Assembly: GCA_044222185.1 (NCBI GenBank)
Contig: JBGANV010000006.1
Location: 160,001 to 224,000, forward strand
Direction: 5' to 3'
Source of the DNA: Planctomycetota bacterium
GTDB lineage: Bacteria > Planctomycetota > GCA-002687715 > CAIWVZ01
DNA length: 64,000 nt
The position numbers and the translations under genes are program-made. Below are positions 9,610-61,418 of this stretch, in pieces (the first letter of the stretch is position 1; each line of letters begins with the position of its first letter). The notes beneath the pieces are model-generated. The model was not told where the DNA came from, did no database searches, and saw nothing but the letters and a program-made list of their open reading frames with translations.

Positions 9610-11262
9610 ATGACCACGAATCCATCGTTGTGCGTCGCCGTGTTTCTCACGATCGCGTCTTTGCTCGTGGCGCAGGACGACATCAAGCTGCCGTTCTATG
9701 GCGTGTTCGGACCCGAGTCGCCAGAGCTCACATCCGCTGGTCTGGGAACGGGCGACATCGTCAAGCGGCAGACGAGCGATGGACAGGCCGCGTCGCCGGT
9801 GCTTCGCGGAGCGGCCGCGGCATTCGCGTTTCCTCCGCAGGTCGATCCGGCGTCGATCGAGATCAATTCGATCGCGTATGCGAACGACGTCTTTTCCGCG
9901 TGGGGACCGTGGGCTCAGCTTCCGACGGCCGTCAAGCTCCGCCGGACGACCATCTCGTTCACCGTCACGCCGGGCTCGTCCGTGACCTATCCCACGGGTA
10001 GCGCCGTTCCCATCTGTTCCGGTGCGCCCGAGTCGGCGCAGATCTACTCCGTCATCACGAACACGGCGGCTCCCGGCGACGGTACGCAGTCGTTCTCCGC
10101 GGGCGCCGCCGTCGCGGACGACTGCGGCTTGGGCACGACCACCGCGGGAAAGCCCACGGTGCTCGCCGCACTGGCCGTCGAGCCTCGCGATTCCGCGACC
10201 GGCGGCGTGCCGGTCTACTTCACGTTGAGCCGCGCGTGCTGTGCGCGACTTCGCCAGGACCCCTCGCTGCCCTATGCGAATGCGCACCCGTGCGACATCT
10301 GGTTTGCCGATGGGATCCAACCACCGGTCATCATCTGCGACATGGACCAGCGGGGACTGCTCGCTCCGGACGACTCCATCGACGCGCTCGCGATGTCGAA
10401 CGCGGGCAACTGCGTCTTCAGCCTCGACGCCGCGTCGCCGACCGTCGTGGGCCACGCGCGCTGGGTCGACGCGTGGTATCCGTCCGCGACGATCGCGGGA
10501 TCGCTGGACCATCTCTCGACGATCATCGATCAGAACACGTTGATCGGCTTCGTGCCGTCGAGTGTCACCGCACTCGAAACCTGGATCACACCGCCGCCCA
10601 ACTACGCGTTCGGCAGCCTCTTCCTCTGGTTCGATCCGTATTGGCTCGGGCTCGAAGGCCAGGGTTCCACTTCGGACGACCTGAACGGCATCGAGATCGT
10701 CGATCCGCCCCAGATGGAAGGGTACGGCGGCTCGATGCCGCTTCGCGGGTCGCCGGGCGATTCGGCTCAGCAGCGTCTGTGTCTCTTTGCGCAGGGAGTT
10801 GCCGGCGACGGCGGGGGCGTCGTACCGGTCCCGGCGCGCGTCGGCGAGCCGATCCACATCCAAGTCGTGCTCCCTGGCGTCATCAACGGTCGACCGCTGC
10901 TCAATTGGGTTCTGTGGATCCGCACCGGCCGCTCGAGCGAGAACACCTTCGGCCTCGTCACGCCGCCAGGCGGAAACACGGCGCCGTTCGCCATGTTCTT
11001 CAATCCGTTCCTCGGGCCGGCGATGCCGGTGTTCGGGACGAGGTCGGGCGTGAACTATGCACTGGGACCCGCGGGGTTGCTGCCGACCGGGACGCTCGCG
11101 AATGCGATGGCGATCCCGAGCGGATTCGCCGCCGGCTCCTACACCCTGCAGATCCTGGCCGTGACGACGGCGCCGAGTGGGGCGTACCCCCTGAAGGGCT
11201 ACTCGTCGAATTGCGTGCAGTTGGACGTCTCGCCGGTCGGGGCGCACATCGCCCTGAATTGA
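9610..11262 (+). CDS. Secreted protein of unknown function with the shared C-terminal domain
   Basis: Signal peptide (LLVA|Q), D.IDAL/DDLNG motifs, C-terminus IPSGFAAGSYTLQ...SSNCVQLDV. Confidence 0.75.
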   Translation: MTTNPSLCVAVFLTIASLLVAQDDIKLPFYGVFGPESPELTSAGLGTGDIVKRQTSDGQAASPVLRGAAAAFAFPPQVDPASIEINSIAYANDVFSAWGPWAQLPTAVKLRRTTISFTVTPGSSVTYPTGSAVPICSGAPESAQIYSVITNTAAPGDGTQSFSAGAAVADDCGLGTTTAGKPTVLAALAVEPRDSATGGVPVYFTLSRACCARLRQDPSLPYANAHPCDIWFADGIQPPVIICDMDQRGLLAPDDSIDALAMSNAGNCVFSLDAASPTVVGHARWVDAWYPSATIAGSLDHLSTIIDQNTLIGFVPSSVTALETWITPPPNYAFGSLFLWFDPYWLGLEGQGSTSDDLNGIEIVDPPQMEGYGGSMPLRGSPGDSAQQRLCLFAQGVAGDGGGVVPVPARVGEPIHIQVVLPGVINGRPLLNWVLWIRTGRSSENTFGLVTPPGGNTAPFAMFFNPFLGPAMPVFGTRSGVNYALGPAGLLPTGTLANAMAIPSGFAAGSYTLQILAVTTAPSGAYPLKGYSSNCVQLDVSPVGAHIALN

Positions 11263-11409: not shown

Positions 11410-13899
11410 ATGGCGATGCGTGCGGGGCTGGGCGTCATCGCGGTCGTGGCGATCGCCGCGGGCGTGTGGTTCCTGCTCGGTGGCGCGGAGCAAGCGCCGC
11501 GGACGCTCGCGAAGCCGGTCGGTGAGCCCGCGGCTGTCGTTGGCGATACGGCGTCGCGACCGGCACCAACTTCGCGCGCCACCGCGTCCGCGATCGTCCC
11601 CAATCCGCTCGTGGATCGCGCGGCCGACGCCGCGGCCGCTCGCGCGGGGCGGTGCGAGTTCCGCATCGTCCAGCCGGACGGAACGCCGGCCTCAGCTGCG
11701 CGATGCGTGCTCGGGAGGAAGCGCGAGCGATTGGGGTTTGCCGACTGCGACGCGAACGGCGTCGCGGCGTTCACGCCGTCGGACGGGGAGGCGTGGCTGC
11801 TCGTGAATCCGCCGGCGCGGCCGAGGGCCCGCTACGTGGTCGTTCCCAGCGCGGGGCGGCACGTGATCGATTTGCCTGACGGGGTTGCCGTTCGCGGGCA
11901 CGTCGTCGTGGACGGGCGCACTCCGGACGAACCGATCGAGCTTCGTCTCAGCGGCGCCGAGGTTCCGCTCGATGGCCCCGTCTTCGAGGGTTCGTACCTG
12001 GCGGCGTTCGGGCCGGATGCGCCGCCAACGATCCGGCCCTGGATGTGCGCGACGACAGCCCCGGACGGTTCGTTCACGTTCTTCGGCATCCCGAATAGCG
12101 CGCGGCAGCTCCACGTGGATACGGTGTCCGATCACTTCGACGTGCCGCCGCAGGTCGCCGCGCGGACGCATCTCGCGAACGTGATTCCTCTGGATCCGTC
12201 GATCGCCGACAACCTCGTCGAACTCACGCGCATGCCCGTTTGGACCGGCCGCATCGTGCGACCCACGGGAGAGCCGGTCGCCGACGCCGTCGTCTCGACG
12301 ACGAGGATCTCTCCGACGTCGCGCGCGAACCTCTTCCGGACGAAATCCGACGGACGGTTCTCGGTCCCAGTGAATCCGCCGAGAGTCGTCGGCGACGGGG
12401 GGCAGATGCGTCGGGACGTCAAGGGGTTCCTCTGGTGCGCCGAGTCGCCGACGTCACCCGTGCACCAGACGACGCACGGGGTCGACGGGGCTCGCGTTCG
12501 TGACGTCGGAGACGTCGTGCTCCCGGCGTCCGCGCGCATCGCATTGCGCCTGCGCGATGCGGCCGGCGCACCGATCGAAGGCGGTCGCGCGGTGCGACCC
12601 GACGGATTCAACTTCCCGGTCCAGGGCCTGAAGTCCGATGGGGCCGGACGCCTCGAGATCTCGATCGACAGATTCCCCAGCGAGGTGGTCGTCGGGGCTG
12701 CGGGCTTTCACGACCAGATCGTCGACATCGCTGGCGGAACCGCCTCGCCGATCGAAGTGACGCTGGTTCGTGGCGGCCACCTCGACGTCGATGTGCGTCG
12801 ACGCGATGGCGCGCCGGAGCGACGGGTGACGCTCGAACTTTTGGGACCTCGGAAGGCCTTCGAGAGCGAGCGCCTCGGGATCGCACGTTTCCTCGCGTCT
12901 GGATTCTCCACCACACCCCGCGACGGCAAGCTCTCGGGCGAGCCTGACGCGGACGGTCGGTTGACCTTCGCAGGCCTCGTGGAGAATTCCACGTACACCG
13001 TCACCGCCAGTGATTCCTTCGGCGCGGTGCTCGCAACGCAGGAGGTGACGTTGACCGCGGAGTCGCGCCCGACCGCGCTCCTCACCGTCGCGCTCGGATC
13101 GCGGAAATTCGCCTGCCGCGTCTTCGATGCGAAGGGCGTCGCGAGGAAGGACGCATCCATTCGGCTCTCGAACCCGAGCTTCGGTGGGCCCTATGGGTTG
13201 ATCGGCTCCGGCGTGAACCTCACGGCGAATGACGACGGCGTTTACCGCGCGTCGGACATCAGCCTCGACACCGTCGACCTCGACGTCGCGTGTCCGGGGT
13301 GCGGGCGGCTCTTCCACGCGGGCATCGACTTGACCGGTGACGACGAGATCCGCGACATCCACCTCTCCGACCCGCGTACCGTCGTATTCGAGGTCGTGGA
13401 TCCTGCTGGTGCGAGCGTCGCCTTCGAGCAATTCGAGGCGAGCTTCGAGGGTCGTCCGCTTGGGTCCGGTGTGACGGTGAAGCGCCGCGAGGGCAAGGCA
13501 ACCGTCTCCGGCATCTCCGCCGGCAAGCTCAAGGTGCGCCTTCGCGTGGCGCGCACCGACTACGACTTCGAGTTCGACACGTCGCAGCCGACGCGGCGGA
13601 TCGTGCTCACGAATCCCGGACGGGTCCTCGTGCACGTCGATCCTCCCGTCGACCGCGAGCCGGGCGCACGGTGGATGATCGAACTGGTCCCCGAACAAGG
13701 CGGGGCGCGCTACTCGGACCTCGTGGCACGCCGGGCGTCCGATCCCACGGATCAACTCCAGTTCGGCAGTGTTCTTCCCGGCCGTTACACGGCTCGGCTC
13801 GTCCACCTCGTCGCGAACGTCTCGCTGGGTTCATCGCCCCCGATGACCGTCGACGTCGAATCCGGCAAGCAGGCCGAGGTCTCCGTGAAGCGGCCCTGA
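11410..13899 (+). CDS. Membrane-anchored CarboxypepD_reg-like (prealbumin-fold) repeat protein, paralog 1
   Basis: N-terminal TM, Pro/Ala linker, repeated G.V...G.P..GA.V / T..DG.F / PG.Y motifs. Confidence 0.8.
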   Translation: MAMRAGLGVIAVVAIAAGVWFLLGGAEQAPRTLAKPVGEPAAVVGDTASRPAPTSRATASAIVPNPLVDRAADAAAARAGRCEFRIVQPDGTPASAARCVLGRKRERLGFADCDANGVAAFTPSDGEAWLLVNPPARPRARYVVVPSAGRHVIDLPDGVAVRGHVVVDGRTPDEPIELRLSGAEVPLDGPVFEGSYLAAFGPDAPPTIRPWMCATTAPDGSFTFFGIPNSARQLHVDTVSDHFDVPPQVAARTHLANVIPLDPSIADNLVELTRMPVWTGRIVRPTGEPVADAVVSTTRISPTSRANLFRTKSDGRFSVPVNPPRVVGDGGQMRRDVKGFLWCAESPTSPVHQTTHGVDGARVRDVGDVVLPASARIALRLRDAAGAPIEGGRAVRPDGFNFPVQGLKSDGAGRLEISIDRFPSEVVVGAAGFHDQIVDIAGGTASPIEVTLVRGGHLDVDVRRRDGAPERRVTLELLGPRKAFESERLGIARFLASGFSTTPRDGKLSGEPDADGRLTFAGLVENSTYTVTASDSFGAVLATQEVTLTAESRPTALLTVALGSRKFACRVFDAKGVARKDASIRLSNPSFGGPYGLIGSGVNLTANDDGVYRASDISLDTVDLDVACPGCGRLFHAGIDLTGDDEIRDIHLSDPRTVVFEVVDPAGASVAFEQFEASFEGRPLGSGVTVKRREGKATVSGISAGKLKVRLRVARTDYDFEFDTSQPTRRIVLTNPGRVLVHVDPPVDREPGARWMIELVPEQGGARYSDLVARRASDPTDQLQFGSVLPGRYTARLVHLVANVSLGSSPPMTVDVESGKQAEVSVKRP

Positions 13900-14039
13900 C
13901 CGGGCGCATCCCATCGAACTGAGGCGCGCCGGTCGCCAGTCGCCGCCAGCGCTGAAAGTCGGCTTGATCGCGGGCTCTCGTGTATGTTGGTGTCGCCTCG
14001 CTGCGAATTGCGGCTGGCGGCGGACAAGGAGGCCATGTC

Positions 14040-16526
14040 ATGGCGATGCGCGTGAGCCTGGCAGTCGTTGCAGTCGTGGTCATCGCGGTCGGTGCGTGGT
14101 TTGCGCTCGGCGGCACGGAGCACGGACCGCAGACCCGCGCGCAACCGAGCGTCGAGCCCGCCGCGGTTCCGTTGGACGTGGAACCGCACCCCGTTCCCAC
14201 CTCCCGGTCTTCGGCAGGCGCCGTCACGGTGAATCCGATCGTCGATCGCTCAGCAGACGCGGCCGCCGTGCGCGCGGGTCGGTGTGAGTTCCGGGTCGTC
14301 CAGCCCGACGGGGCGCCGGCGGTCGGCGCCCAATGTGCACTTGGGCGGAAGAAGCTCTTGCGCGGGACGTCCGACTGTGATGCGAATGGCGTCGCGACGT
14401 TCGAGCCGTCGGAGGACGAAGCGTGGCTCATCGTCGTCGCGCCCACGCGGCCCATGGCCGGCTTCGTCGTCACGCCGCGCGCAGGGCGGCACGTGGTGGA
14501 TCTGCCCGACGGCGCCGTCGTTTGCGGCCACGTCACGGTCGACGGGCGACCGCCGCAGGAGCCGATCGTTCTCCGCCTCAGCGGTGGTGAGCCGCGGCTC
14601 GATGCCCCGATCTTCGAGGGATGGAACGGCGCACTGTTTGGACGCGACACGCCCCGCGTGATGGAGACGTCCTGTCGTGCGACGACCGCGCCCGACGGTT
14701 CGTTCGCGTTCTCTGGCGTTCCCAAGGACTACCGGGAACTTCACGTCGCGCCGCTCTCGGACTTTTTCGAAGTCCCGCTGCGCGTCGTAGAGCGCACCCA
14801 TCTCGTCAACGTCATCCCGGTCGACCCTGCGTCTCCGGACAACCTGATCGAGCTGACACGCGCTCCCGTGTGGACGGGGCGCGTCGTTCGTCCGACGGGC
14901 GAGCCGGTCGCCGGTGCGCTGGTGTCGACGGACATGATCATCGGACCGTCGCTCGACCACGTTATCCGGACGAAGGTCGACGGACGGTTTACCGTTCCCG
15001 TGCGCTTGCCGACCGTCGTCGGGGGCGCCGATGGGACGGGGAAGGTCCTGAGCGTGACTCTCTATTGTGCGGACTCGTTATCGGCCCCCGTGCATGGCAC
15101 GAAGCACATCAACGGCGCGACGCTCTCCCGAGACCTCGGCGACGTCGTCCTGCCCGCGCCGACCCGGATCACCCTGAGCGTGCGGGACGGCACGGGGTCG
15201 CCGATTGCAGGGGCCCGCGTGGGGCGACCTCGGGGACTCAGCATTCCGGTCCCCGTAGTGAAGTCCGATGCCGAGGGCCGGCTCGAGCTCCCGATGGACG
15301 AGTTCCCCGGTTCGTTGATCGTCGGTGCGGCAGGGTTTCACGACCTCAATGTCGAGATTCCGGAGGCGGTCACGGATCCCATCCCGCTGACCTTGCGACG
15401 TGGCGGGCACATCGACGTCGAGGTCCGCCGCCCCGATGGTGGTCCCGAGCGTCGCTACATGGTCGAGTTGGCTGGCTCACGAACGGCATTCGAAGACGGG
15501 GTTCTGGTGATTGCGCGCCACCTCGCTGGCGGGGCGAACAGCGGGCCCTTCGAGGGGAAGGCCACGGGATCGCCGAACGCCGAGGGCCAGATCACCTTCG
15601 CTGGCCTCGTGGACGGCTCGACGTTCACCGTCGACGCCGTCGACCCGTTCGGAACCAAGGTCGCGAGCCGAGACGTGGCGCTGTCGGCGGAGTCTCGGCC
15701 GACCGTGGTCCTGACCGTCTCTCCAGGGACGCGAAAGTTCGCGTGCCGCGTGTTCGACCTCAAAGGGGTGGCGCGGGCGGACGCGTCGGTTCTCCTGACG
15801 AAGCCGGGCGCGAAGGACGTCATGCGTGCCGGTAGGTTGTACGTCAAGGCGGATGTCGACGCCGTTTACCGTCAATCGGACATGGGCATCGATCGCGTGG
15901 ACGTCGAGGTGTCCTGCCAGGGGTGCGGGCGGCTCGTGCAGAACGGCATCGACCTCACCGACGACGAAGAGGTCCGCGACTTCCACCTCTCCGAAGCGCG
16001 CTCCGTCGAATTCGAGGTCGTGGACTCGAGCGGGGAGCCCGTCGTCTTCGAAGCCTTCGAGGCGAGCTACGAAGGGCACAGCCTCGCGTTCGGCGGCGTG
16101 CAGATCGTCCGCCGCGAGGGCAAGGCGACCGTCTCGGGAGTCTCTGCAGGCAAGCTCAACGTCCGCGTTCGCGTGGCGCGCACCGACCATGACTTCGAGT
16201 TCGACACGTCCCAGTCGAAGCAGAGGATCGTCCTCGACCGCCCAGGGCAGGTTCTCGTCCACGTCGATCCACCCATCGAGCGGAAGCCCGGCGAACGCTG
16301 GATGATCGAACTGGTCCGCAGCGAGGACAAGAAACGCTACTCGGACCTCGTCGCGCGGCGCGACTCCGATCCCACGGATCGGTTCGAGTTTCGCAGCGTT
16401 CTTCCCGGTCGCTACGCCGCCCGCCTCGTCCGGCTCGTCGAGAACCGCACGGACGGCTCCTCGTCCCCAGTCAGCGTCGACGTCGCATCCGGCAAGCAGG
16501 CCGAGGTCACGGTGAAGCGGCCGTGA
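14040..16526 (+). CDS. Membrane-anchored CarboxypepD_reg-like repeat protein, paralog 2 (tandem duplicate)
   Basis: Colinear with 11410-13899 from MAMR to SGKQAEV.VKRP; start ATG 14040 by homology. Confidence 0.8.
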   Translation: MAMRVSLAVVAVVVIAVGAWFALGGTEHGPQTRAQPSVEPAAVPLDVEPHPVPTSRSSAGAVTVNPIVDRSADAAAVRAGRCEFRVVQPDGAPAVGAQCALGRKKLLRGTSDCDANGVATFEPSEDEAWLIVVAPTRPMAGFVVTPRAGRHVVDLPDGAVVCGHVTVDGRPPQEPIVLRLSGGEPRLDAPIFEGWNGALFGRDTPRVMETSCRATTAPDGSFAFSGVPKDYRELHVAPLSDFFEVPLRVVERTHLVNVIPVDPASPDNLIELTRAPVWTGRVVRPTGEPVAGALVSTDMIIGPSLDHVIRTKVDGRFTVPVRLPTVVGGADGTGKVLSVTLYCADSLSAPVHGTKHINGATLSRDLGDVVLPAPTRITLSVRDGTGSPIAGARVGRPRGLSIPVPVVKSDAEGRLELPMDEFPGSLIVGAAGFHDLNVEIPEAVTDPIPLTLRRGGHIDVEVRRPDGGPERRYMVELAGSRTAFEDGVLVIARHLAGGANSGPFEGKATGSPNAEGQITFAGLVDGSTFTVDAVDPFGTKVASRDVALSAESRPTVVLTVSPGTRKFACRVFDLKGVARADASVLLTKPGAKDVMRAGRLYVKADVDAVYRQSDMGIDRVDVEVSCQGCGRLVQNGIDLTDDEEVRDFHLSEARSVEFEVVDSSGEPVVFEAFEASYEGHSLAFGGVQIVRREGKATVSGVSAGKLNVRVRVARTDHDFEFDTSQSKQRIVLDRPGQVLVHVDPPIERKPGERWMIELVRSEDKKRYSDLVARRDSDPTDRFEFRSVLPGRYAARLVRLVENRTDGSSSPVSVDVASGKQAEVTVKRP

Positions 16527-16538
16527 CCTTCCCGTGCT

Positions 16539-17384
16539 TCATCGTTCGGTGGCGCTCGGCGACTGCCGGCCGGTGGATACGACGGCGACGAGAACGCCGG
16601 TGATGGCCCCCGCGACGTAGCCGAGGAGGCTCAGCGGCGCGAAGTCATCAGGCGTCTCACCCCGCAACGCGAACTGGGTCATCACGAAGGCTCCGATCCA
16701 ATTCACCGTGTACACGACTCCGCGAGGGTGGGGCGGTTTCATCGTGAGGATGATCACGGCTCCCGCGGCGACGACGCCAGAGACGGCTCCTGCGGCACCG
16801 ACGAGCGCGAGCGTCGGATCCTCGGTGACGAACGCATGGACGATGCCGCTCGTGACCGACGACGCGATCAGCGTCGCCATCAGCCACCAGCGGCTCTTGT
16901 GCGTCTCGAGGACGATTCCGAACGGCACGAGGAAGACCAGGATGCACGCGAGCTGGTTGAACGTCGCCTGGACTAGCCCATGCGTCACGAGGCCGAGCGC
17001 GCGGCCCTGGCGCACCGCGCTCGGGACGAGCTTCAGGGCCCACGCCGTCCTCGCGAAATCCTCCGTGTGGGCAGCAACGGTGGCCGCCGCACACGCGATC
17101 GAAACGAGAGCCGTGAGGAACCATCGCGGCGCCGGCCGCGGCGTCGGGTCGGGAATGGCGGGCGGGAACGTGGGGTTGCGAGAGAAGAACTGACCCTCGA
17201 AATGCTTGCCATCGCGGCGCAGATGGCGCAGCCGCCACGCGTGACGTTCTTCGGGCGAGAGGCTCGAGAGGCGGATCCCCGCGTCGTCCGGCGTGTCGTC
17301 CGATCCTCTCTCGGGTTCGGACGCGTCGTTCCCTCGTCTCGCTGCATCGCCCTCGCTCATCGGCGCGCCTTCCTGCACGATCAT
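16539..17384 (-). CDS. Rhomboid-fold membrane protein lacking catalytic residues (pseudoprotease)
   Basis: Rhomboid-like TM pattern, but GASG reads GAAG and the TM6 His is absent (LLGYVAG). ATG 17384 overlaps the upstream TGA (ATGA); alternative start 17360. Confidence 0.7.
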   Translation of the reverse strand: MIVQEGAPMSEGDAARRGNDASEPERGSDDTPDDAGIRLSSLSPEERHAWRLRHLRRDGKHFEGQFFSRNPTFPPAIPDPTPRPAPRWFLTALVSIACAAATVAAHTEDFARTAWALKLVPSAVRQGRALGLVTHGLVQATFNQLACILVFLVPFGIVLETHKSRWWLMATLIASSVTSGIVHAFVTEDPTLALVGAAGAVSGVVAAGAVIILTMKPPHPRGVVYTVNWIGAFVMTQFALRGETPDDFAPLSLLGYVAGAITGVLVAVVSTGRQSPSATER

Positions 17385-18526
17385 CGGCCGGCTTCGCGTG
17401 CGGTCCGACGATTCTCGCCGTAACGGAACGCCGCACCAAGCAGGAGCCCGACTCCCGCGCCGCCCAGGTGGGCCAGCGCGCTCACGGCGGACTGTCGCGA
17501 CATCTGGAGCTGAAGTCCCCAGATCTGGCTCGCGATCCACACGACGAACTGCCCGAGGATGTTCACGCCGCCGATGAGGAAGCTGTTCGTGGCCACCTTG
17601 GCCGCGGGCCGCATGACGACGAGCGCGGCGAAGAGGCCGGCGATCCCGCCGCTCGCGCCGATCATGGGCACGGTGCGCTCGGGCGCGAGGATCGCATGTG
17701 AGACGGCCGCACCGACGACGGATGCTCCCAGGATCGCGAGGAGCCGCCGATGCCCCGCGAGGTTCTCGATGGTCGCCCCGAGCGGCAAGAACACGAGCAT
17801 GTTTCCCAGGAGGTGCGCGACGTTCGCATGCAGGAAGAAGTGGCTGACGAGTCCGAAGACGTTCCCCCGGAACAGATCGGACGGAACCAGCCCTGCGCGG
17901 GCGATGGCTCCGGCCTTGTCGACGGACAGCGCGACGCCGCTCGTCACGCAGACGATCAGCGTCAACCCGAGAGTCACGGGCGCAGCACGAAGCTGGGCGC
18001 GGACCCCGTTCGAGCGGGGGAAATTGAGCAGGAATGCGATGGCTTCGCCGCCCGCCTCGTCGATCGCGTCCTGTCGCAGCAGCGCCACGCGGCGAGCGGA
18101 CTTCGATGCGCGCTCGACCTTCGTCGGGCGGCGGGCGCACGTCGCATCGGTCATGGCCGCGCGCACGGCCGCGAGCTCGGCGCGGTCGAACCACAAGAGG
18201 TCGCAAGGCGTGCACGCGTCGAGCGACACGAGACCGGCGCTTCCTCGCACGCGCGCCGTCCGCATGGGCTCGGCGCAACGCGGACACGGCCGGTGCGCGG
18301 CGGTCGCGTCACCGAATGCCGTTCGGAGTTCGTCGATCGCCTGAGACGGTGCCAGCGTGCGCAGCGACACGAAGGGCACGATCTGGGATCGGCACGCATC
18401 GCAGAGCCACAGCTCGGGCAACGAACCGATGAGGCGGCCTTCGATCCGCCGCATCGGATGACGGCAGTCCGGGCACTCGAACGTGCGTGCCTCGCGGCGA
18501 TCGATCACCGGTTCGAGTGCAGACAC
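17381..18526 (-). CDS. Rhomboid intramembrane serine protease with N-terminal zinc ribbons
   Basis: CPDC..CDAC and CPRC..CTPC pairs, HFFLHA...HLLGNM, IGASG, AHLGG. Confidence 0.88.
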   Translation of the reverse strand: MSALEPVIDRREARTFECPDCRHPMRRIEGRLIGSLPELWLCDACRSQIVPFVSLRTLAPSQAIDELRTAFGDATAAHRPCPRCAEPMRTARVRGSAGLVSLDACTPCDLLWFDRAELAAVRAAMTDATCARRPTKVERASKSARRVALLRQDAIDEAGGEAIAFLLNFPRSNGVRAQLRAAPVTLGLTLIVCVTSGVALSVDKAGAIARAGLVPSDLFRGNVFGLVSHFFLHANVAHLLGNMLVFLPLGATIENLAGHRRLLAILGASVVGAAVSHAILAPERTVPMIGASGGIAGLFAALVVMRPAAKVATNSFLIGGVNILGQFVVWIASQIWGLQLQMSRQSAVSALAHLGGAGVGLLLGAAFRYGENRRTAREAGR

Positions 18527-18535: not shown

Positions 18536-19114
18536 CTACGATCCGATGTTGATGTCGTAGGCCTGCGTGAGCACGAACGGCCCCGCGCATGCCGGTCCCG
18601 GGAACACCACGGCCTGGCTCGAAAGTCGAAGGCAGGTGAACGGCGGGAGGGGCGGCATCGTGAACGTGACGGTGAACACTCCGGCCGTGTTGGTCGTCCC
18701 GGAGAGCAGCACGCTGAGCGGGCAGGTGAAATCCAGGTCCACAGACTGGTTGGTGCTCGCGCCACATGCCGTGAACGGGATTGGCAGGCACGTAGGTCCC
18801 AGCGGTGCGAAGCACGGGATGCATGGACAGGGGTCCGTGAAGATCGTCACCTGGCCGCCCGGCACGCACGTCACCGTGAGTGTGAACGTCCCGCCGCCGG
18901 AGAGGTCGAAGAACATGGGAGTGCAGGACGTGCTGCCCGAGACACCGCCCAGGCCCGGCGTGGTCCCCGGCGGCCAGCAGATGGATGGCGTCGTGCCGCA
19001 GCCGACACAGGTGACGGTGAAGTCGTTCACGAGCGGCACGCCCGTGGTCTGTCCGACGACGCTCGAAGACGCGATCAGCGTTGCGGCGAGGATCGCCACG
19101 ATCCGGCATTTCAT
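18536..19114 (-). CDS. Small secreted Cys/Pro/Thr-rich protein made largely of the shared C-terminal domain
   Basis: Signal peptide (VVG|Q), ggag RBS, 13 Cys in the mature part, ends MPPLPPFTCLRLSSQAVV...LTQAYDINIGS. Confidence 0.75.
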   Translation of the reverse strand: MKCRIVAILAATLIASSSVVGQTTGVPLVNDFTVTCVGCGTTPSICWPPGTTPGLGGVSGSTSCTPMFFDLSGGGTFTLTVTCVPGGQVTIFTDPCPCIPCFAPLGPTCLPIPFTACGASTNQSVDLDFTCPLSVLLSGTTNTAGVFTVTFTMPPLPPFTCLRLSSQAVVFPGPACAGPFVLTQAYDINIGS

Positions 19115-23302: not shown

Positions 23303-23390
23303 TCCATCGGGATTAGAGCCCGCCGATGGCAGGACGGATCACACGTCACTCGGATTTCCACGCCCGCCACCAGTCTTCGGCCGGCGGGGC

Positions 23391-26447: not shown

Positions 26448-26523
26448 GGGGCGCATCATACTGAAGCGCGGCTACGACTGTTCCGGATAGCTCGGCCGAG
26501 CGGCGGTTTGCTGCGCGACGTCG

Positions 26524-36546: not shown

Positions 36547-37152
36547 ATGAGCGAAAACAACCCTGATTCCACCGCGACCCGGTCCCTGATCCTGCGCGCG
36601 AAGGGCGGTGAGCGCGAGGCGTTCGAGGCCCTGTTCGCCACCGCGGCGCCACGGGTCGCGGCCTACGTCGAGGTTCGCCTGGGGCTCGAGCTGCGGTCGC
36701 GGCTCGAGGTGGGTGACGTCCTCCAGGAGACGTGGCTGGCCGCCGTCGCCGGCCTTCGCGAATTCGAACCCGCCGGTCCCGGCGCCTTTCTTCGGTGGCT
36801 CTGCCGCATCGCGGAACACCGGATCCGGGACCTGGCGGAGCATTTCGACGCACAGAAACGTCGTGGCGAGGTGCAGTGCGGCTCGGCGATCGACGTCGCA
36901 TTCCGCGAATCCATGACCGGGATCACGACCGCCGCGATCCGCGACGAAACCCGCGGCCGACTCGTGCTGGCGCTCGCCGAGCTCGACGCGGACCTGCGAG
37001 CGGTCGTCCTCGCGCGGTTCTTCCGCGGCCTCACGCTGGAGGAGATCGCAGCCGAGTCCGGTCGCAGCCTGGCGACGATTCACAGGCAGCTTGGGCGTGC
37101 CGTCGTCCGGCTCGGCACGCGTCTCAGGGATCTGGCGGAGGACGTGTCGTGA
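36547..37152 (+). CDS. ECF RNA polymerase sigma factor, kinase-associated type
   Basis: T..LILRA..G.REAFE.LF, DVLQET, FLRWL..IA, R.VV.ARFF.GLTLEEIA. Confidence 0.9.
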   Translation: MSENNPDSTATRSLILRAKGGEREAFEALFATAAPRVAAYVEVRLGLELRSRLEVGDVLQETWLAAVAGLREFEPAGPGAFLRWLCRIAEHRIRDLAEHFDAQKRRGEVQCGSAIDVAFRESMTGITTAAIRDETRGRLVLALAELDADLRAVVLARFFRGLTLEEIAAESGRSLATIHRQLGRAVVRLGTRLRDLAEDVS

Positions 37153-43513: not shown

Positions 43514-44908
43514 ATGACGCGCATGCAATGCTGGTTCGTGCTCGTTTGCCTCGCGGTCGCGTCGACTTCATTCGCCACCGACCTCGTCGTGGGCCCGCCC
43601 GGCAGCGGCGCGGCGTATTCGACGGTGCAGGCGGCCGTCGCGGCGGCGCTCCCGAACGATCGCATCCTCATCCTTCCGGGTACCTACGTAGGTGCCGTGT
43701 TCGTCGACAAGGCGCTGGAGATCATCGGATCGGGAGCCGGGGCCACGATCCTGCGGTCGCAGGCCACGACCTCTCCTGGCGTGATTGCACCGCCATTCGT
43801 GGTCGCGAACCTGGCAGCCGGGGAGCGCATCAGGGTTTCCGGGCTCACCATGGCGATCCAGGGGCTGTCCCTGGCGCCGCTCCCCTTCCTCATGCAGGTC
43901 CGGAACTGCCTCGGCCGTGTCGAGCTGTGTGACCTCACGATGAACGCAACCGGTCTGCCGAAAGTCCCCGTCGGAATGGCCGCCGGCGCGCTTTCGATCC
44001 AGGATTGCAGCGTGGTGGTCGGCTCGCACCTCGTGACGTCCGCGGTCGAAACCGTTTTCCCGATCCCGATCGGCGGAAGCGCGGCTCAGGCCGATGGAGT
44101 CGCGGGGCTGATCGTCGAACGATCAGGTGTGACCCTGGACGACGCGTCGTTGGGAGGTACGGCGACCACGATTCCCGTGAGCGCGTTCGGCGGAGACGGC
44201 GGCCCCGGCATCGTCGCCATCGATTCGGTCGTCCAACTCGGGCGCTCGTCCGTTCGGGGCGGACCAAGCGGCGGGCGGCAGCCCGGAGTGGCCGGGATCG
44301 GCGGCGCGGGCATTCGCGCGGTGCGAAGCCAGCTGCTCGTCCACGGCGGTCCGAACAACCTCGTCCGGGGAGCCGCCGGGTTCGAATACGGCTCGCCCGG
44401 CGCGGCGAGCCTCGGGACGCCGGCTCCCGCGATCGCACTCGACGGTGCGAGCTCGATGTCCCATGCGAGCGACGCCGCCTTGATCGGGGGGGCCGGCACC
44501 GCGAACCAGCCAGCGGCGGCGGCGATTGCAGCGGCGCCGGGAGCGACGACGTTCCCGATCGCATCGCGTTTGCCGACGGTCGCCATGACTCCTGCGACGG
44601 TGCTCATGGGCGGCCTGTTGACGGTCGAGATCGCCGGCGAGCCTCTCGTGGATCACATTCGCGTGCTGACGCTCGTGACGTCGGCGGCCGTGACGTTCCC
44701 CGGCGTGTCGGGCGCACTGCTCATCGATCCCGCGGCGGCGATCGTCATCCACGTGGATCCCCTGGACGCGTCGGGTGTCGGGACGGTTCCGCTTCCCGTG
44801 CCCGTCGTGCCCGCGTTGAACGGGATCCAGCTCGTGGAGCAGGCGGCGCAGGTGCTGCCCTCAGGCCTCGCCCTCTCGCCGCCCGTCCTCGCGACCGTCG
44901 TGCTTTGA
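43514..44908 (+). CDS. Secreted beta-helix-like Gly-rich protein with the shared C-terminal domain
   Basis: Signal peptide, YSTVQAAV.AA...D.I.I.PGTY beta-helix cap, GG.GG.G repeats, ends VPVVPALNGIQLVEQAA...LSPPVLATVVL. Confidence 0.8.
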   Translation: MTRMQCWFVLVCLAVASTSFATDLVVGPPGSGAAYSTVQAAVAAALPNDRILILPGTYVGAVFVDKALEIIGSGAGATILRSQATTSPGVIAPPFVVANLAAGERIRVSGLTMAIQGLSLAPLPFLMQVRNCLGRVELCDLTMNATGLPKVPVGMAAGALSIQDCSVVVGSHLVTSAVETVFPIPIGGSAAQADGVAGLIVERSGVTLDDASLGGTATTIPVSAFGGDGGPGIVAIDSVVQLGRSSVRGGPSGGRQPGVAGIGGAGIRAVRSQLLVHGGPNNLVRGAAGFEYGSPGAASLGTPAPAIALDGASSMSHASDAALIGGAGTANQPAAAAIAAAPGATTFPIASRLPTVAMTPATVLMGGLLTVEIAGEPLVDHIRVLTLVTSAAVTFPGVSGALLIDPAAAIVIHVDPLDASGVGTVPLPVPVVPALNGIQLVEQAAQVLPSGLALSPPVLATVVL

Positions 44909-49052: not shown

Positions 49053-49230
49053 TGGGGTCATGGGCGCAGACTCCCCGAAAGTCGGGAACCAATTCCTTTC
49101 ATCGGGGTCGACACTCTAAACCCGAGATGCGCGAACGGTCGAGAGGGTCGTTCCGTTCTGCGAGGTCGCCGTACGGGGACGGGCGAAGCTCGATACGATC
49201 GCCCCCGTTCCCGAGTGCCTGGAGGACGCC

Positions 49231-50994
49231 ATGAGATCGAAGCTTCCGAGGGTGGAAGGGCCGCAGATTCTGGGATTTCTGAGCAGGTTCCTTCTCATGA
49301 CGGTGGTCGTCACCGTCGCGCTCGCGCAGAAGCCCGACCCCCGATTCATGGCCGATTTCGACTCCCTGGCGAAGACGGTCAAGGAGCACGGCGCCGCGGT
49401 CGTGTCGAAGAAGATCGACTGGGACGCGGTCTGCGCCACCTTCAAGCCGCGCTTCGCGGCATGCACCGACGACGTCACCTGTGTTCGTCTCGCCATGGAG
49501 ATGCTCGCGACGCTCCGCGACAGTCACACGGGGATCACGAAGTCCGCGATCAAGAACGATGCCTTGCCGTCCAAGTGGACCGGGCTCTTCGGAGGCGGTC
49601 TCTGGCTTGGTTGGGAGCAGGGCCGTTGTGTCGTGCGCGGCGTGATGAAGGGACACCCGATCGAGGCGAGCGTGCCGCTCGGGTCCGTGCTGCTCTCGAT
49701 CGCGGGCGAGCCGGCGTGGATCGCGCTCGAGCGGGAGCGGCGGCGTTGCGCGGTGTTCATGGGGATCTCCAGCGATCACAGCTTCTTCGCGTCGCTGGGG
49801 AACCGCATGCTGCCTTTCGGCGACAAGTCGCAGCTCTCGTGCGTCTTCCTCGGGCCCGATGGAAAGGCAAAGACGGTCGACGTTCCGCGCTGGGGTCCGG
49901 GCGGCAAGGCGTTCTACCCGGACGAGGTCTTCCTGCCGGAAGGTGTCGCACACGCGGCGGGCGCGTGCTCGAAGATCCTCACTGGTCCCGCGGGCATGAA
50001 GCTCGGCTACCTGAAGGTGACGGGGTCCATGGACGGTGCGACGGTCACGGCGTTTCACGCCGCCTTCGACGCGCTGAAGGGAATGGACGCCCTCCTGCTC
50101 GACTGTCGCATGATGGGTGGTGGCAGCGACGACTCGGCGTGGCAGATGTGCGGTCGGCTCTTTTCGGCGCCGCGGTCCAACGGCAACCAGCGGACGCTTT
50201 CGCCCACGGGAAGTTGGCAGTTCGACGGCCCCGCCGTGATGCTGCAGGACGAGAGCGAGGTCTCGTCCGCGGAGACGTTCACCTGGGCGCTGAGCGAAAC
50301 GGGCCGCGTGATCTCGGTCGGCCGGACCACGGGTGGTTGGGGGATCATCCCGAATGGGTTCGAACTGCCATCCGGGCTCGCGAGCTATCGCCTCGGCGTC
50401 AACGATCGCGGAACATCGATCCGGGGGATCCACACCGAGGGCGTGGGATGGCCGGCGGACGTCACCGTGCCGCTGGGCCCGAAGGTCTGCGCCGTGGCCG
50501 ATGCACCGCGAGCCATCGGTACCGCCGTGCTCGCGTGCCTTCGCACGGGCGCCGCGGTGGAGGAGACACGCAAGGCGTTCCATGCGCTCGCCGAGGGCGA
50601 CGGCGCGCCGCTGCGGACGCTGTCACAAAAGCTCGGGAAGAAGCCCGGCGTGGATCTGGAGGCGTTGGCGAAGCTCTTCGCCGACGACCTCAAGGCCGAG
50701 ATCGCGAGCGAGATCGCCGCACTCAAGACCGATCAGACGGCGCTCCCCGACGTGGCGAACTGCGCGAAACGCCTTCCGCGCCTCGCGGCCCGGGCGAAGG
50801 CCGCGGGAGGCGCCGGTACCGTCGCCGACCTCGAATCCTCGATGAAGGCGCTGCGGAACGAACAACTCGCGCAGGACGCGTGGCTCGCGCTCTCCGACCC
50901 GTTCTCCCCGGATGCGGCGGTCAAAAAGGCCTTCCTGGCCAAGCATGGCGGGACGAAGACGGGTGTCTTCCTCCGCGAGCACCTTTGGAAGTGA
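49231..50994 (+). CDS. S41 family peptidase (tail-specific-protease-like)
   Basis: L.DSHT, GYL.V, LLLD.R..GGG, SSAETF, GRTT.G, EG.G..ADV. Confidence 0.78.
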   Translation: MRSKLPRVEGPQILGFLSRFLLMTVVVTVALAQKPDPRFMADFDSLAKTVKEHGAAVVSKKIDWDAVCATFKPRFAACTDDVTCVRLAMEMLATLRDSHTGITKSAIKNDALPSKWTGLFGGGLWLGWEQGRCVVRGVMKGHPIEASVPLGSVLLSIAGEPAWIALERERRRCAVFMGISSDHSFFASLGNRMLPFGDKSQLSCVFLGPDGKAKTVDVPRWGPGGKAFYPDEVFLPEGVAHAAGACSKILTGPAGMKLGYLKVTGSMDGATVTAFHAAFDALKGMDALLLDCRMMGGGSDDSAWQMCGRLFSAPRSNGNQRTLSPTGSWQFDGPAVMLQDESEVSSAETFTWALSETGRVISVGRTTGGWGIIPNGFELPSGLASYRLGVNDRGTSIRGIHTEGVGWPADVTVPLGPKVCAVADAPRAIGTAVLACLRTGAAVEETRKAFHALAEGDGAPLRTLSQKLGKKPGVDLEALAKLFADDLKAEIASEIAALKTDQTALPDVANCAKRLPRLAARAKAAGGAGTVADLESSMKALRNEQLAQDAWLALSDPFSPDAAVKKAFLAKHGGTKTGVFLREHLWK

Positions 50995-51184: not shown

Positions 51185-52243
51185 ATGAACTCACGGTGTC
51201 TGTTTCCGATCTGGGTGATCGTCCTCGTCGTGTCGGCTCGCGGGCAGGGACTAGTCCTCTCCGACGGTGCCTTCTCCGCGTGGAGCTCCGTGTTCGTCGT
51301 GAGCGCCCCCTTCGCGCCGGTGCCCCCCGCACCCGGATCCACGAGCCAGTTCACCGTCGTGAGCGGCGGCAACCCCGGAGCCGCCGCGCGCGTGTCGAAC
51401 ACGGTGGCGACGAACGCGACGATCAGTCACATCCTCATCAACCCGCAAGCCGTCTACGACCCAGCACTCAATGGACCCCTCCTCGGTTCGACGCTCAGAT
51501 TGGATGCGAAGGGGATCTCCTTCACCTTCAACGGCGCCGGGCAGGGCGTTGGGCTGGCGTGCGAGCAGGGCGGGCTTTTGTACGTGAGCGCAGCCGGCAC
51601 CGTCTCCGGCCAGCTCGTGGGGACCTGGGTCTCGCTCCCGCCCGTCACGACCCTGCCGAACCAGTTCGTCGCGGTCGTTCCCGGCTCTCCGCCGCTCGAC
51701 ACGAGCACGTCGGGGTCGCCGATCACGTTCGGATTCGTCGCATCGAACTCGACGTGTCAGAACTGCTCGGGGTACATGACGGTCGTCGCCTACGACAATT
51801 GGACCGTCACGACGGAGAACGCCCCGATCTTCGCCGGAAGTGGCAGTGATCTCCGCCTGCGAACCAGTGTGTCCGCGGTTCCAGCGACGACCCAGTCGAT
51901 CCAGTCGGCGTCGGCCCTCGCTCCGCTCACCGTCGTCCTCGACTCACCGCTCGGCACGCTGGCCGGCTCACCGCTGATCCTCGGCGCGAGTCTCCTCCCG
52001 ACGGGTGCTCCTCCGGCCGCCGCGCCGCCGCTGTGGCTCGACCTGCAGTTCGTGGCGATCCTCGTCGATGGCCTGCAGGCGACGCCTCTTGGCCCGGCGC
52101 AGGTGCTCAGCCCGCTGGGCAATTCGTTCGGCTACGTGATCCCGCCCGGACTTGGCGGAGCCAGCGTCTGGATCCAGGCGGCCGTGGTGCCAGCGTCGGG
52201 CGGCGTGTTCTTCACCGACGCGCATGAAATCCGCGTGCTCTGA
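51185..52243 (+). CDS. Secreted protein with the shared C-terminal domain
   Basis: Signal peptide (ARG|Q), GGNPG and DN motifs, ends IPPGLGGASVWIQAAV...FTDAHEIRVL. Confidence 0.78.
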   Translation: MNSRCLFPIWVIVLVVSARGQGLVLSDGAFSAWSSVFVVSAPFAPVPPAPGSTSQFTVVSGGNPGAAARVSNTVATNATISHILINPQAVYDPALNGPLLGSTLRLDAKGISFTFNGAGQGVGLACEQGGLLYVSAAGTVSGQLVGTWVSLPPVTTLPNQFVAVVPGSPPLDTSTSGSPITFGFVASNSTCQNCSGYMTVVAYDNWTVTTENAPIFAGSGSDLRLRTSVSAVPATTQSIQSASALAPLTVVLDSPLGTLAGSPLILGASLLPTGAPPAAAPPLWLDLQFVAILVDGLQATPLGPAQVLSPLGNSFGYVIPPGLGGASVWIQAAVVPASGGVFFTDAHEIRVL

Positions 52244-58448: not shown

Positions 58449-61418
58449 ATGATTCACAACCGCATCCGCCGGCCGCTGGGTCGGCTCACGAGTTTCCTTG
58501 CTGCATTGACGGCCATCACGGCGTGCGCCGCGGCACAGCAGCCGTACACCCTCGCCACGATCCCGGTTCCCGCCGACACCCTGCGGAACATCGGGTCGTC
58601 GTTCAGCTCGGCGGGCGACGTCAACGGTGACGGTGCGCCTGACATCCTTGCAGGGTCCCCTTACAACGATTCCCCCTCAGGCGATCCGATCACGGACTCG
58701 ATCACGTTCAGTGGGGCACCAGGCGCCGGCTTCGAGATCTGGACCCCTTCCACCGGCGCGATCGTGAGGTCGGTGATCGATCCCAGCTACTCCACGAGGG
58801 GGTTCGCCCTGATCAACCTCGGCGACGTCGACAACGACGGGCGGCCCGACCACGCGGTCAGCAACCCCACGTTCACGGCGGGAACGGGGATCAACTTCGC
58901 GGGGCGTGTGGACGCCTACTCGGGCGCCAATGGGAACGTCCTGTGGTCGTTCGTCTCCACCGTGCCCGGCAGCCAGGCCGGGGCATCGCTCGCTCGCATC
59001 GCGGACGTGGACCAGGACGGGACCGCGGACCTCTTGATCGGGTCCCCCGGGATGAGCGGCGTCGCGGGTCGAGTGTTCGTCGTGTCTGGACGAACTGGTG
59101 TCCTGCTTCGCGTGCACGGCGGCGGCACGGGCGACGCGCTCGGGTGGGGCACGTCGGACGTCGGCGACGTCGACGGCGACGCAGTGTCCGACTACGCCGC
59201 CGGTGCGCCGCAGACGGCCGTGCTCGGCGCGACCCAGCCTGCCGGATACGTGCGGATCTGGTCCGGCGCCAGCGGAGCCGCGGTTCGCACGATCGCGGGC
59301 GTGTCATCGTTCGATCGCTTTGGCCGCGCCCTCGCGCCCGCGGGCGACCTGAACGGCGACGCCGTTCCCGACCTCTTCGTCGGCGCTCCGGCCCGATTCG
59401 GCCAGGCCCTACCGGGTCGTGTGGTCGCCATCAGCGGGGCCAACGGCAGCACGCTCTTCAGCGTGTCGCGCAACGTCGCTGGCGACCGTTTCGGATGGAG
59501 CCTCGCCGCCGTCGGAGACCGCAATGGCGACGGCCGTGTCGACTGCGCCGTTGGGACGACCGTCGGAGTGGTCGAAGTGCGATCAGGGCTTCTCGGCGGC
59601 GTGATCGCGACGCAGACGGGGATCCTCTCGCAGACGACCTCGCTGACGGGCGTCGTCGTGCGGCCCGTGGCCATCGACGACGTGAGCGGAGACTCCGTTG
59701 GCGACCTGGTCGTCGGCGCGCCGAACGCTGGCGAGAACGGCCTCGCTGCGGTCTTCTCAACTCTCTTCGGTTCGCCGTTCGCGTCCCGCGTGGGTGACGA
59801 CGTGCAGGGGAGTGCCAGCTCCGCTGCGGCCGTCGGCGATCTGGACGGGGACGGCATCCGGGATCTCGCCATCGGCAACGCGCTCCGCAACGGGCCCGGG
59901 CTGGGGAATGTGGGAAGCGTGCTGCTGTGGTCGACGGGCGCCCAAGCGCCGATCGCGTCCGTCTTCGGGACCAGCAGCGAGGCTCGTTTCGGATCCGGCC
60001 TCGCGACGCTCGACGATGTCGATCACGACGGCGTAGAGGACTTCATCGTCGGGGCGATCAACGGATCGGGCGCCGTCACGTGTCATTCCGGTGCGACGCG
60101 GGCGCTGCTCTACACGGTCAACGGGCCGATCTTCGGCGGGGCGTTCGGCCTCACGCTCACGCGGTTGTCCGATGTCGACGGAGACAACGTTCGCGACTTC
60201 GCCGTTGGCGCGCCCTACACAGCGGTTCCCGGCGTGGGCGCGACGACCGGGCAGGTCTACATCTGTTCGGGGCAGACCGGCGCGATCCTGCGCGTGATCA
60301 GCGGGCTGGTGGCTGGCGAGTTCTTCGGCGCCACGATCGCCGACATCGGTGACGTGAACGGCGACGGAATCGCCGACATCCTCGTCGGCGCTCCCTACGC
60401 GAGCCCGGCGGGTGTGAGCTTCGCCGGCGTCGCGCGCATCGTCTCGGTTGGGAGCGGCGCGGTCCTGCGCACGCACGCGGGCTCGGGGCCCGGCATCGCG
60501 CTCGGATACGGGGTGTGCGGCGTCGGCGATGCCGACGGTGACTCGGTCGGTGACTACGCGATTGCATCGCCGGCGAACACGGCGTCCGGCGCATCGTCCG
60601 CTGGACCGGTCGTGATCCGCTCCGGGCTCACCGGCGCTCTGATCCGTTCGATCGCGCCGTCTCCGATCCCGCCCGGCTTCGTCGTGAACGACGAGTTCGG
60701 CCGCGGCCTCGCGAACGCGGGGGACCTCGACGGCGACGGTCAGGCGGACATCTGCCTTGGGGCCGCGCCCTGGCTCGGGTTCCCGCCGGTGCAGTCGCGC
60801 GAGATCCACGCCTACTCGGTGGCGACGGGCGCGCTCATCGCACGGCAGACGGCGTCGGGCGGGTTCGTGCCCTTCACTCCCGCCGTGAACGCCACGGGAT
60901 TCGATCTATCCGGCGATGGTGCTCCCGACTGGCTCACCGTCGAGTATCCGACGACGACGTCGACCAGCGTGCGGATCATGTCGCGGACCGGCGTGCCGAC
61001 GGGCTCGACGACCGCGGGCATCGGTTGCAATCTGGCCGCTGGTCAGCCTCCCGTGCTGCAGAGCGGTGGCGGCGACATCGTCGCGTCGATCGGTGCGCCC
61101 GTGTTCGACCTCATGTTGAGTCGGGCGGAGCCGCTCCGGTCGGGGCTCCTCACGATCGGTGGGAGCAACACCTCGATCGGTGCGCTCGCGCTCCCGCTCG
61201 ATCTCACGATCATGGGCATCCCCGGCTGCACGCTCTACGACTCCGCGGACGGATACCTCCCGCTCACGACGACGGCAGCCGGGCTGCGGGGGATCCGGGC
61301 ACCGCTTCCCGTCCAGCCGTCGCTTGCCGGCGCGATCGTGCACCTCCAGATCTTCATGGCGGACGCGACGGGTGCCGTCGTCTCGTCGACGAACGGCCTG
61401 ACGCTCGTCGTCCAGTGA
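58449..61418 (+). CDS. Secreted FG-GAP (integrin-alpha-like) repeat protein with the shared C-terminal domain
   Basis: More than 10 GD.[ND]GDG..D...GAP repeats; ends LPVQPSLAGAIVHLQ...SSTNGLTLVVQ. Confidence 0.88.
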   Translation: MIHNRIRRPLGRLTSFLAALTAITACAAAQQPYTLATIPVPADTLRNIGSSFSSAGDVNGDGAPDILAGSPYNDSPSGDPITDSITFSGAPGAGFEIWTPSTGAIVRSVIDPSYSTRGFALINLGDVDNDGRPDHAVSNPTFTAGTGINFAGRVDAYSGANGNVLWSFVSTVPGSQAGASLARIADVDQDGTADLLIGSPGMSGVAGRVFVVSGRTGVLLRVHGGGTGDALGWGTSDVGDVDGDAVSDYAAGAPQTAVLGATQPAGYVRIWSGASGAAVRTIAGVSSFDRFGRALAPAGDLNGDAVPDLFVGAPARFGQALPGRVVAISGANGSTLFSVSRNVAGDRFGWSLAAVGDRNGDGRVDCAVGTTVGVVEVRSGLLGGVIATQTGILSQTTSLTGVVVRPVAIDDVSGDSVGDLVVGAPNAGENGLAAVFSTLFGSPFASRVGDDVQGSASSAAAVGDLDGDGIRDLAIGNALRNGPGLGNVGSVLLWSTGAQAPIASVFGTSSEARFGSGLATLDDVDHDGVEDFIVGAINGSGAVTCHSGATRALLYTVNGPIFGGAFGLTLTRLSDVDGDNVRDFAVGAPYTAVPGVGATTGQVYICSGQTGAILRVISGLVAGEFFGATIADIGDVNGDGIADILVGAPYASPAGVSFAGVARIVSVGSGAVLRTHAGSGPGIALGYGVCGVGDADGDSVGDYAIASPANTASGASSAGPVVIRSGLTGALIRSIAPSPIPPGFVVNDEFGRGLANAGDLDGDGQADICLGAAPWLGFPPVQSREIHAYSVATGALIARQTASGGFVPFTPAVNATGFDLSGDGAPDWLTVEYPTTTSTSVRIMSRTGVPTGSTTAGIGCNLAAGQPPVLQSGGGDIVASIGAPVFDLMLSRAEPLRSGLLTIGGSNTSIGALALPLDLTIMGIPGCTLYDSADGYLPLTTTAAGLRGIRAPLPVQPSLAGAIVHLQIFMADATGAVVSSTNGLTLVVQ

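Follow-up and report, generated by a model that had tools for sequence, protein, structure and literature searches.

The subject of this report is a protein domain found at the C-termini of secreted proteins encoded in a 64,000-nucleotide stretch of DNA from a Planctomycetota bacterium (GenBank assembly GCA_044222185.1, contig JBGANV010000006.1, positions 160,001 to 224,000 of the forward strand), referred to below as the window. An autonomous, lineage-specific, extracytoplasmic domain of about 120 amino acids (aa) ends the proteins encoded by genes E, B, and C and probably also that of gene D. It represents a sizeable family that is absent from Pfam and NCBIfam and has no PDB counterpart. An earlier note, made from the sequence alone, had proposed that the domain was common to five otherwise unrelated secreted proteins, A to E, as a candidate sorting or anchoring signal. 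The five genes and their C-terminal segments, numbered from the first nucleotide of the window, are listed below.

9610..11262, + strand: gene A, 550 aa, secreted orphan.
10840..11259, + strand: claimed tail of A; family membership unsupported, only the relaxed motif PSGFAAGSYTLQ being present.
18536..19114, - strand: gene B, 192 aa, Cys-rich and secreted, consisting almost only of a signal peptide and a divergent domain copy.
18542..18904, - strand: domain in B, divergent copy (residues ~71-191), supported by hhalign, hidden Markov model (HMM), shuffles, and phmmer.
43514..44908, + strand: gene C, 464 aa, with a signal peptide, a beta-helix-like N-terminal part, and a divergent, Cys-free domain copy.
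44564..44905, + strand: domain in C, divergent copy (residues ~351-464), supported by HMM, shuffles, phmmer, and hhalign.
51185..52243, + strand: gene D, 352 aa, secreted, of no recognised family, with a probable, strongly diverged domain copy.
51947..52240, + strand: domain in D, probable copy with approximate boundaries, the matched part being residues 269-337.
58449..61418, + strand: gene E, 989 aa, with a signal peptide, ~11 FG-GAP repeats, and a canonical C-terminal domain.
61026..61415, + strand: domain in E, canonical, 130 aa, running from the first conserved Cys through LPLDL...GIPGC to the stop codon.

With the 130-aa tail of E as the query, phmmer retrieved 876 cluster representatives at E ≤ 1e-3 from the 1.84 billion searched, in agreement with the prediction that many relatives would be found. 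According to the family alignment, the domain starts with [FY]GxGCxGxxGxPxL, followed by a strand pair, GxSxTxW, LPLDLxxxGxPGCxL, and three strands, and the last third consists of iPxxPxLxGxxxxxQxxVxDP..N, S-N-G, and a final strand running into the stop codon. The pattern originally read by eye (a hydrophobic residue before P, L-x-G, an invariant Q, S/T-N, and a last strand) corresponds to the conserved columns P95, G102, and Q108 and lies in this last third. Of the 136 proteins carrying the central motif, 103 possess both Cys motifs.

The position and architecture of the domain were determined from the best 150 of the 876 phmmer matches and from genomic loci. In 138 of these 150 proteins the domain envelope ends ≤25 aa from the C-terminus, with a median gap of 2, and in 105 of 110 closed genomic ORFs (open reading frames) the domain ends ≤6 residues from the stop codon. 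Most of the nonterminal exceptions have an extra extension of about 30 to 50 aa resembling added strands, and other domains follow the family domain only in P0043, L022, and L061. The expectation that relatives would be terminal was therefore borne out, whereas the stricter one, that they would always be terminal and signal bearing, holds for most members only, since the domain is internal in these three and a signal-peptide-like N-terminus was recognised in 65 of 90 full-length carriers by a crude hydropathy rule, which was applied to signal peptides throughout. In a subgroup including P0052, P0079, P0093, P0142, L038, and others, the usual last strand is followed by a tail of about 35 to 42 aa with the pattern ..G.....GF...GRG.V.Q...W, which looks like an added strand pair and not a different domain.

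The relationship among the window tails is visible only through the family profile. All-against-all comparison of the five tails with phmmer and blastp gave no significant match, the best reaching only 5 to 6 bits, so the window alone could not have confirmed a shared tail. E is certainly a family member; its score of E = 8.7e-49 was obtained with an HMM built from E's own phmmer matches and is therefore not independent of E. A further HMM of 280 family sequences, from which A to D had been left out, was run on all 620 ORFs from the six-frame translation of the window. The ranks next to E were taken by B, with E = 1.1e-4, and by C, with E = 1.5e-4, both in register at the extreme C-terminus, and none of 2,000 composition-preserving shuffles of either tail equalled its score. 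By hhalign, B matched the family alignment with P = 2.5e-4 over 109 columns reaching the C-terminus, and C matched with P = 0.002 over 33 columns. In reverse searches with phmmer, B found the C-terminal domain of family member P0122 (E = 0.003), and residues 351-445 of C found the family ORF L106 (E = 1.4e-4). These sequence comparisons support the assignment of B and C to the family.

The match of D to the profile is weak, with an HMM E value of 1.9, 78 of 2,000 shuffles scoring as well, and an hhalign P of 0.026. However, D aligns in register to family member L089 (phmmer E = 0.0077), with PLWLDL opposite PLPLDL and IPPGLGGxxxxxQAAV opposite IPAGLGGxxxxxQAAV, and it is considered a probable member. 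Membership of A is unsupported. It matches the family neither by HMM nor by hhalign, 548 of 2,000 shuffles score as well as A itself, its tail has a best Atlas score of 0.79 (recognition 1811) with no lead, and the single-sequence AlphaFold model of that tail (pLDDT [predicted local distance difference test] 39.4) is unusable. What A carries is the relaxed form of the motif only, shared with 77 of 105 family C-termini versus 5 of 122, 2 of 316, and 22 of 1,358 control C-termini (0.6 to 4%); the motif had been loosened after A was seen and the five proteins had been picked by eye, so its presence in A is not independent evidence. The claim of one domain on five proteins is accordingly upheld for E, B, C, and probably D, though by way of profiles only, and is not upheld for A. 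Likewise, the tails fail to align significantly in pairs, whereas B and C align significantly through the profile.

In each of E, B, C, and D the matched region reaches the last few residues before the stop codon. The GxGC...GxPGC Cys pair and the LPLDL loop are present in E and are missing from B, C, and D, with D keeping PLWLDL; there is no Cys in the last 130 aa of C or D and one in that of A, and the 10 Cys in that of B are differently patterned. The conserved Cys pair has been lost from B, C, and D, which are fast-evolving variants of the domain. When the tails of A, C, and D were searched by word index against 5.8 billion protein clusters, each retrieved only itself, so no subfamily profiles could be made for them. 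Variants of the IPxGLxG type amount to 3 of the 280 family sequences, too few for a subfamily HMM.

Translation confirmed all five ORFs and the C-terminal peptides originally quoted for them. The G+C content at third codon positions was 0.84 to 0.87 in frames A to E (0.87 in B and 0.86 in E), versus 0.58 to 0.77 in overlapping alternative ORFs. A hydrophobic segment was found at the N-terminus of all five proteins, consistent with the Sec signals attributed to them. The annotated start of A at 9610 gives a signal peptide without an Arg-rich n-region, and an in-frame ATG upstream (MLRRNVV..., 9541-9609, + strand) is a possible start that would add one. None of the five has a transmembrane-like stretch at the C-terminus, as segments of 17 residues within the final 45 aa peak at hydropathies of 0.98 to 1.65, which agrees with the statement that these are not PEP-CTERM, LPXTG, or GlyGly-CTERM proteins. 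They are also Lys poor, as had been remarked, with 0 to 0.9% Lys compared with 2.8% in 20 other genes; E contains no Lys and 46 Arg in 989 residues. A Pfam scan of the five recognised only the FG-GAP repeats of E (1.4e-48), and an NCBIfam scan gave weak NosD/pectinesterase (beta-helix) matches of about 1e-4 at the N-terminal part of C. No Pfam or NCBIfam model covers any of the five tails at E ≤ 1.

The AlphaFold model of the E domain, computed with the family alignment, is a confidently predicted eight-strand beta-sandwich (pLDDT 87.5, predicted template modelling score 0.79), in which strands 3 and 4 are connected by the LPLDL...PGC segment, a loop that includes a short helix. The two conserved Cys residues probably form a disulfide that links the central loop with the N-terminal segment; the co-occurrence of the Cys motifs (103 of 136) suggests such a bond, which in turn suggests an extracytoplasmic location. 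The earlier description of a Pro/Gly-rich beta domain of about 100 to 130 aa was an understatement, the domain being a compact, well-predicted beta-sandwich that usually has a Cys pair.

The comparison with known families that the earlier note called for, together with one with known structures, identified no counterpart in Pfam, NCBIfam, or the PDB. No Pfam or NCBIfam model covered the domain in 38 domain sequences at E ≤ 0.1, and sequence and profile searches of the PDB gave no match below an E value of 0.28. Foldseek found nothing in the PDB at E ≤ 1e-3, the best TM scores (template modelling scores) being 0.50 to 0.54. Among the Foldseek matches listed were generic accessory sandwiches of the immunoglobulin (Ig)-like or fibronectin type III (Fn3)-like kind with TM scores of 0.4 to 0.54, including GbpA, Amuc_1438, the Fn3 domain of a pectate lyase, the Ig-like domain of GH158, and Fn3 domains. 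Among ESM-Atlas clusters, the nearest 30 carry only the label "hypothetical protein" and come most commonly from Planctomycetota. In the full-text literature searched, no description of the domain was found, and a remark on an Akkermansia C-terminal domain is the only related statement.

To survey the distribution of the family, a degenerate pattern for LPLDLxxxGxPGC was scanned against the DNA of a species-representative genome collection. At least 121 loci match, and 117 of the 121 listed were confirmed by the HMM. The four that failed (Rubrivivax, Mycobacterium, Rhizobium, and Solirubrobacterales) are the only loci from other phyla and were rejected as chance matches. All 117 confirmed loci among the matches listed are in metagenome-assembled genomes (MAGs) labelled Planctomycetota, a planctomycete subgroup, or "bacterium", and none is from a cultured isolate. 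A single MAG contains at least 7 loci under the strict pattern. Since the pattern catches only canonical copies, the copy numbers and taxonomic range given are minimum estimates. Family genes are often found only a few kilobases apart on one contig (L046/L047, L056/L057, L004/L017, and L024/L094), and such clustering, as with the four or five copies in 52 kb of the window, suggests local duplication.

The passengers of the domain are diverse. In a Pfam scan of 90 full-length carriers, FG-GAP repeats were found in 34 and the leading Kelch model in 13, and CHRD, DUF4397, CARDB, LamG, C-type lectin, PD40, trypsin-like, SASA esterase, CBM96, LTD, and M4 peptidase domains were each found in 1 or 2. 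There is no Pfam family common to all 90, and the FG-GAP, Kelch, CHRD, lectin, and protease passengers are unrelated, as the differing passengers of the window had suggested. P0055, P0064, and B in the window consist of the domain alone behind a signal peptide. Of the family carriers of ≥250 aa, 6 of 102 are Lys free; compared with their genomic neighbours, carriers contain about half as much Lys (1.18% versus 2.12%) and Arg (5.4% versus 9.8%).

By its logic, the closest analogue of the domain would be the CTD (C-terminal domain) of T9SS (type IX secretion system), for which the models are presumably Por_Secre_tail, PF18962 / TIGR04183. Like that CTD, the domain is a beta-sandwich (about 80 to 130 aa in the T9SS case) at the extreme C-terminus of Sec-exported proteins, and it occurs behind many unrelated passengers, in many copies per genome, within one bacterial lineage. 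However, the T9SS CTD models matched neither the five proteins (Pfam/NCBIfam, E ≤ 1) nor the 38 domain sequences (E ≤ 0.1), no T9SS CTD was among the 44 Foldseek matches listed, the host belongs to Planctomycetota and not Bacteroidota, and the planctomycete domain has its own motifs, GxGC, LPLDL..GxPGC, and LxGx5Q. No T9SS component (translocon, PorV-type shuttle, or PorU-type signal peptidase) was found in a Pfam scan of 27 window ORFs. Akkermansia is a member of the PVC (Planctomycetes-Verrucomicrobia-Chlamydiae) superphylum, and its protein Amuc_1438 (8df2) is a weak Foldseek match to the E model (E = 0.01, TM scores of 0.47 to 0.49). In a 2026 paper, the last domain of the Akkermansia muciniphila sulfatase Amuc0953 is described as resembling the T9SS CTD in an AlphaFold 3 model, and a comparable system is said possibly to exist (PMC13524802). 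That case is similar in being a proposed CTD-like tag outside Bacteroidota, the same idea as in the earlier note, and it differs in concerning another organism and one protein; the idea of such tags outside Bacteroidota is already in print (PMC13524802, 2026), whereas the planctomycete family is not.

Other C-terminal systems are more distant. LPXTG, PEP-CTERM, GlyGly-CTERM, and MYXO-CTERM signals are likewise C-terminal tags common to many unrelated secreted proteins of a genome, but they consist of about 25 to 35 aa comprising a motif, a transmembrane helix, and a basic tail, whereas the planctomycete domain is a folded unit of about 120 aa. All four were rejected as candidates, as no 17-residue stretch reached a hydropathy of 2.0 in any of 149 family proteins or of the five window proteins, and there is no basic tail, with 0 or 1 basic residues in the last 8. 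Dockerin, SLH, and PPC domains (the last being the pre-peptidase C-terminal domain, which is presumably PF04151) are terminal modules on diverse secreted passengers as well, serving docking or transit and processing. They differ in that the planctomycete domain matched no Pfam model and no repeated Ca-binding loops were noted in the family alignment; to our knowledge, it has no cohesin-like partner. Ig-like domains are also known to follow beta-propellers, as in the integrin alpha "thigh" domain and the galactose oxidase C-terminal domain. The arrangement is shared by about half of the carriers, in which a beta-sandwich directly follows an FG-GAP or Kelch propeller, but the planctomycete domain also occurs behind nonpropeller passengers and alone. 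The integrin headpiece 9cz7_A was a weak Foldseek match (TM score of 0.29).

In the proposed role, the passenger would be carried across by Sec export, and the C-terminal domain would act afterwards as a common address or anchor module, with the specific activity supplied by the passenger. Either an outer-membrane export or attachment machine would recognise the domain, following the logic of the T9SS CTD, or the domain would dock the passenger onto a cell-surface component, following that of dockerin or SLH domains. A sorting or anchoring role is consistent with the architecture of the family, which is large, terminal, attached to unrelated passengers, signal bearing, and present in several copies per genome. 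A shared address or anchor module acting after Sec is given roughly an even chance of being the correct reading. A bolder version is tentative and considered rather unlikely: the domain may be the cargo tag of a so far unrecognised outer-membrane export or surface-attachment pathway that is specific to a clade of uncultured Planctomycetota and arose as an independent invention of the T9SS logic, with the Cys-free B, C, and D, and perhaps A, as rapidly diverging cargo.

Several observations weigh against a sorting or anchoring role. Targeting, cleavage, and anchoring are all inferred roles, put forward by analogy. Neither the scan of window ORFs nor the flanks of 76 family loci yielded a translocon, a sortase-like protease, or a docking partner; among the 143 ORFs flanking those loci (≤2 kb on each side) the largest cluster had 2 members, and each Pfam family seen was confined to at most 2 of 125 flanking ORFs. 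The C-terminal position is not obligatory, since P0043, L022, and L061 have domains behind the family domain, and the figures for terminal position come from the best 150 of the 876 matches and from strict-motif loci, so that weaker members may differ. Beta-propellers, which elsewhere are trailed by a purely structural Ig-like domain, make up more than half of the passengers that could be identified. In the window, A is not demonstrable as a member, and B, C, and D are without the Cys pair and the LPLDL/PGC loop; if this loop is the recognised feature, these three proteins may function differently.

The domain could instead be an ordinary accessory Ig/Fn3-like module, providing structural support or binding carbohydrate or protein, that has no trafficking role and has spread by domain shuffling in one clade. 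This explanation is a substantial one, though short of an even chance. It would attribute the end position to the C-terminus being the easiest site for domain gain or to the capping of a beta-propeller. It agrees with the Foldseek results, which yielded only generic accessory beta-sandwiches (TM scores of 0.4 to 0.54), with the propellers preceding the domain (34 FG-GAP, 13 Kelch, and 2 PD40 of 90 carriers), with the existence of stand-alone and occasional internal copies, and with the lack of a conserved partner gene nearby. However, accessory families of the Ig-like type are usually internal or in tandem, whereas this domain is single copy and lies ≤6 aa from the stop in 105 of 110 ORFs, and at least a dozen unrelated passenger types precede it. 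A further explanation, considered unlikely, is that the domain is cleaved off once export is complete, as with PPC domains, having served as a C-terminal pro-domain or intramolecular chaperone that aids folding or keeps the passenger inactive in transit. The extreme C-terminal position, the peptidase carriers (trypsin-like in 2 and M4 in 1 of 90), and the gene for an S41 peptidase of the C-terminal-processing type directly upstream of D would fit such a pro-domain, but most passengers are nonenzymatic propellers or lectins, the Pfam scans gave no match to PPC (PF04151), and S41 peptidases are not recurrent neighbours.

A very improbable alternative is that the likeness among the tails reflects chance or composition, the tails being Ala/Gly/Pro/Val rich in a high-GC genome, and that only E is real. 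The nonsignificant pairwise comparisons, the failure of the tails of A, C, and D to find anything other than themselves among 5.8 billion protein clusters, and the presence of the relaxed motif in 0.6 to 4% of control C-termini are all compatible with chance, as is the fact that the five proteins were picked by eye from about 30 genes. For B and C it is contradicted by E values of about 1e-4 against 620 ORFs, in register and with 0 of 2,000 shuffles as good, as well as by the reciprocal single-sequence matches to family members; chance remains a live explanation only for A and, less strongly, for D.

Neighbouring genes were considered as general partners of the domain, namely the rhomboid genes by B and an S41 peptidase gene by D. 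Neither kind recurs at family loci elsewhere, and both were therefore rejected in that capacity. Downstream of B, at a distance of 10 bp and in the same orientation, lies a gene for a protein with a zinc ribbon and a rhomboid protease domain (17381-18526, - strand), and a second rhomboid-domain ORF extends from 16539 to about 17380 (- strand). Rhombosortases, which belong to the rhomboid family, process GlyGly-CTERM signals; unlike those signals, B has no transmembrane tail. The S41 peptidase gene (49231-50994, + strand) lies 190 bp upstream of D, and its position could hint at tail processing. Between C and D, a 1,378-aa protein (44925-49061, - strand) contains several PDZ domains, Sortilin/BNR repeats, and a FlgD-Ig-like domain.

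The window has a G+C content of 69%, and the Pfam scan of 27 of its ORFs revealed a planctomycete-like gene content, including DUF1570, a 3-keto-disaccharide hydrolase (DUF1080 type), sulfatases, and extracytoplasmic function (ECF) sigma factors, together with Ser/Thr kinases fused to FGE-sulfatase domains. Two large Ser/Thr kinases are encoded at 6453-9479 (+ strand) and 36732-41330 (+ strand), the first with a C-terminal FGE-sulfatase (formylglycine-generating-enzyme-like) domain. Four large CarboxypepD_reg proteins are encoded within 11410-16526 (+ strand) and 20681-26459 (- strand). Two of these are tandem paralogues (11410-13899 and 13980-16526) whose C-termini are nearly identical, and in the ORF at 20681-23302 an N-terminal ECF-type sigma-70 domain is fused to a CarboxypepD_reg/Big_1 part.

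How proteins are transported to and across the outer layers of Planctomycetota is poorly understood. It was typically through a family of this kind, large, strictly terminal, passenger independent, and clade confined, that sorting systems such as LPXTG, PEP-CTERM, and the T9SS CTD first came to be recognised. The window also illustrates that C-terminal motifs seen by eye in a high-GC genome can be real and yet detectable only by profiles. Should the domain be a mere accessory Ig-like module, the sizeable family would still deserve a model. If it is a true tag, it would define the set of surface or secreted cargo of these Planctomycetota and would provide a handle for a search for the machinery by phylogenetic profiling.

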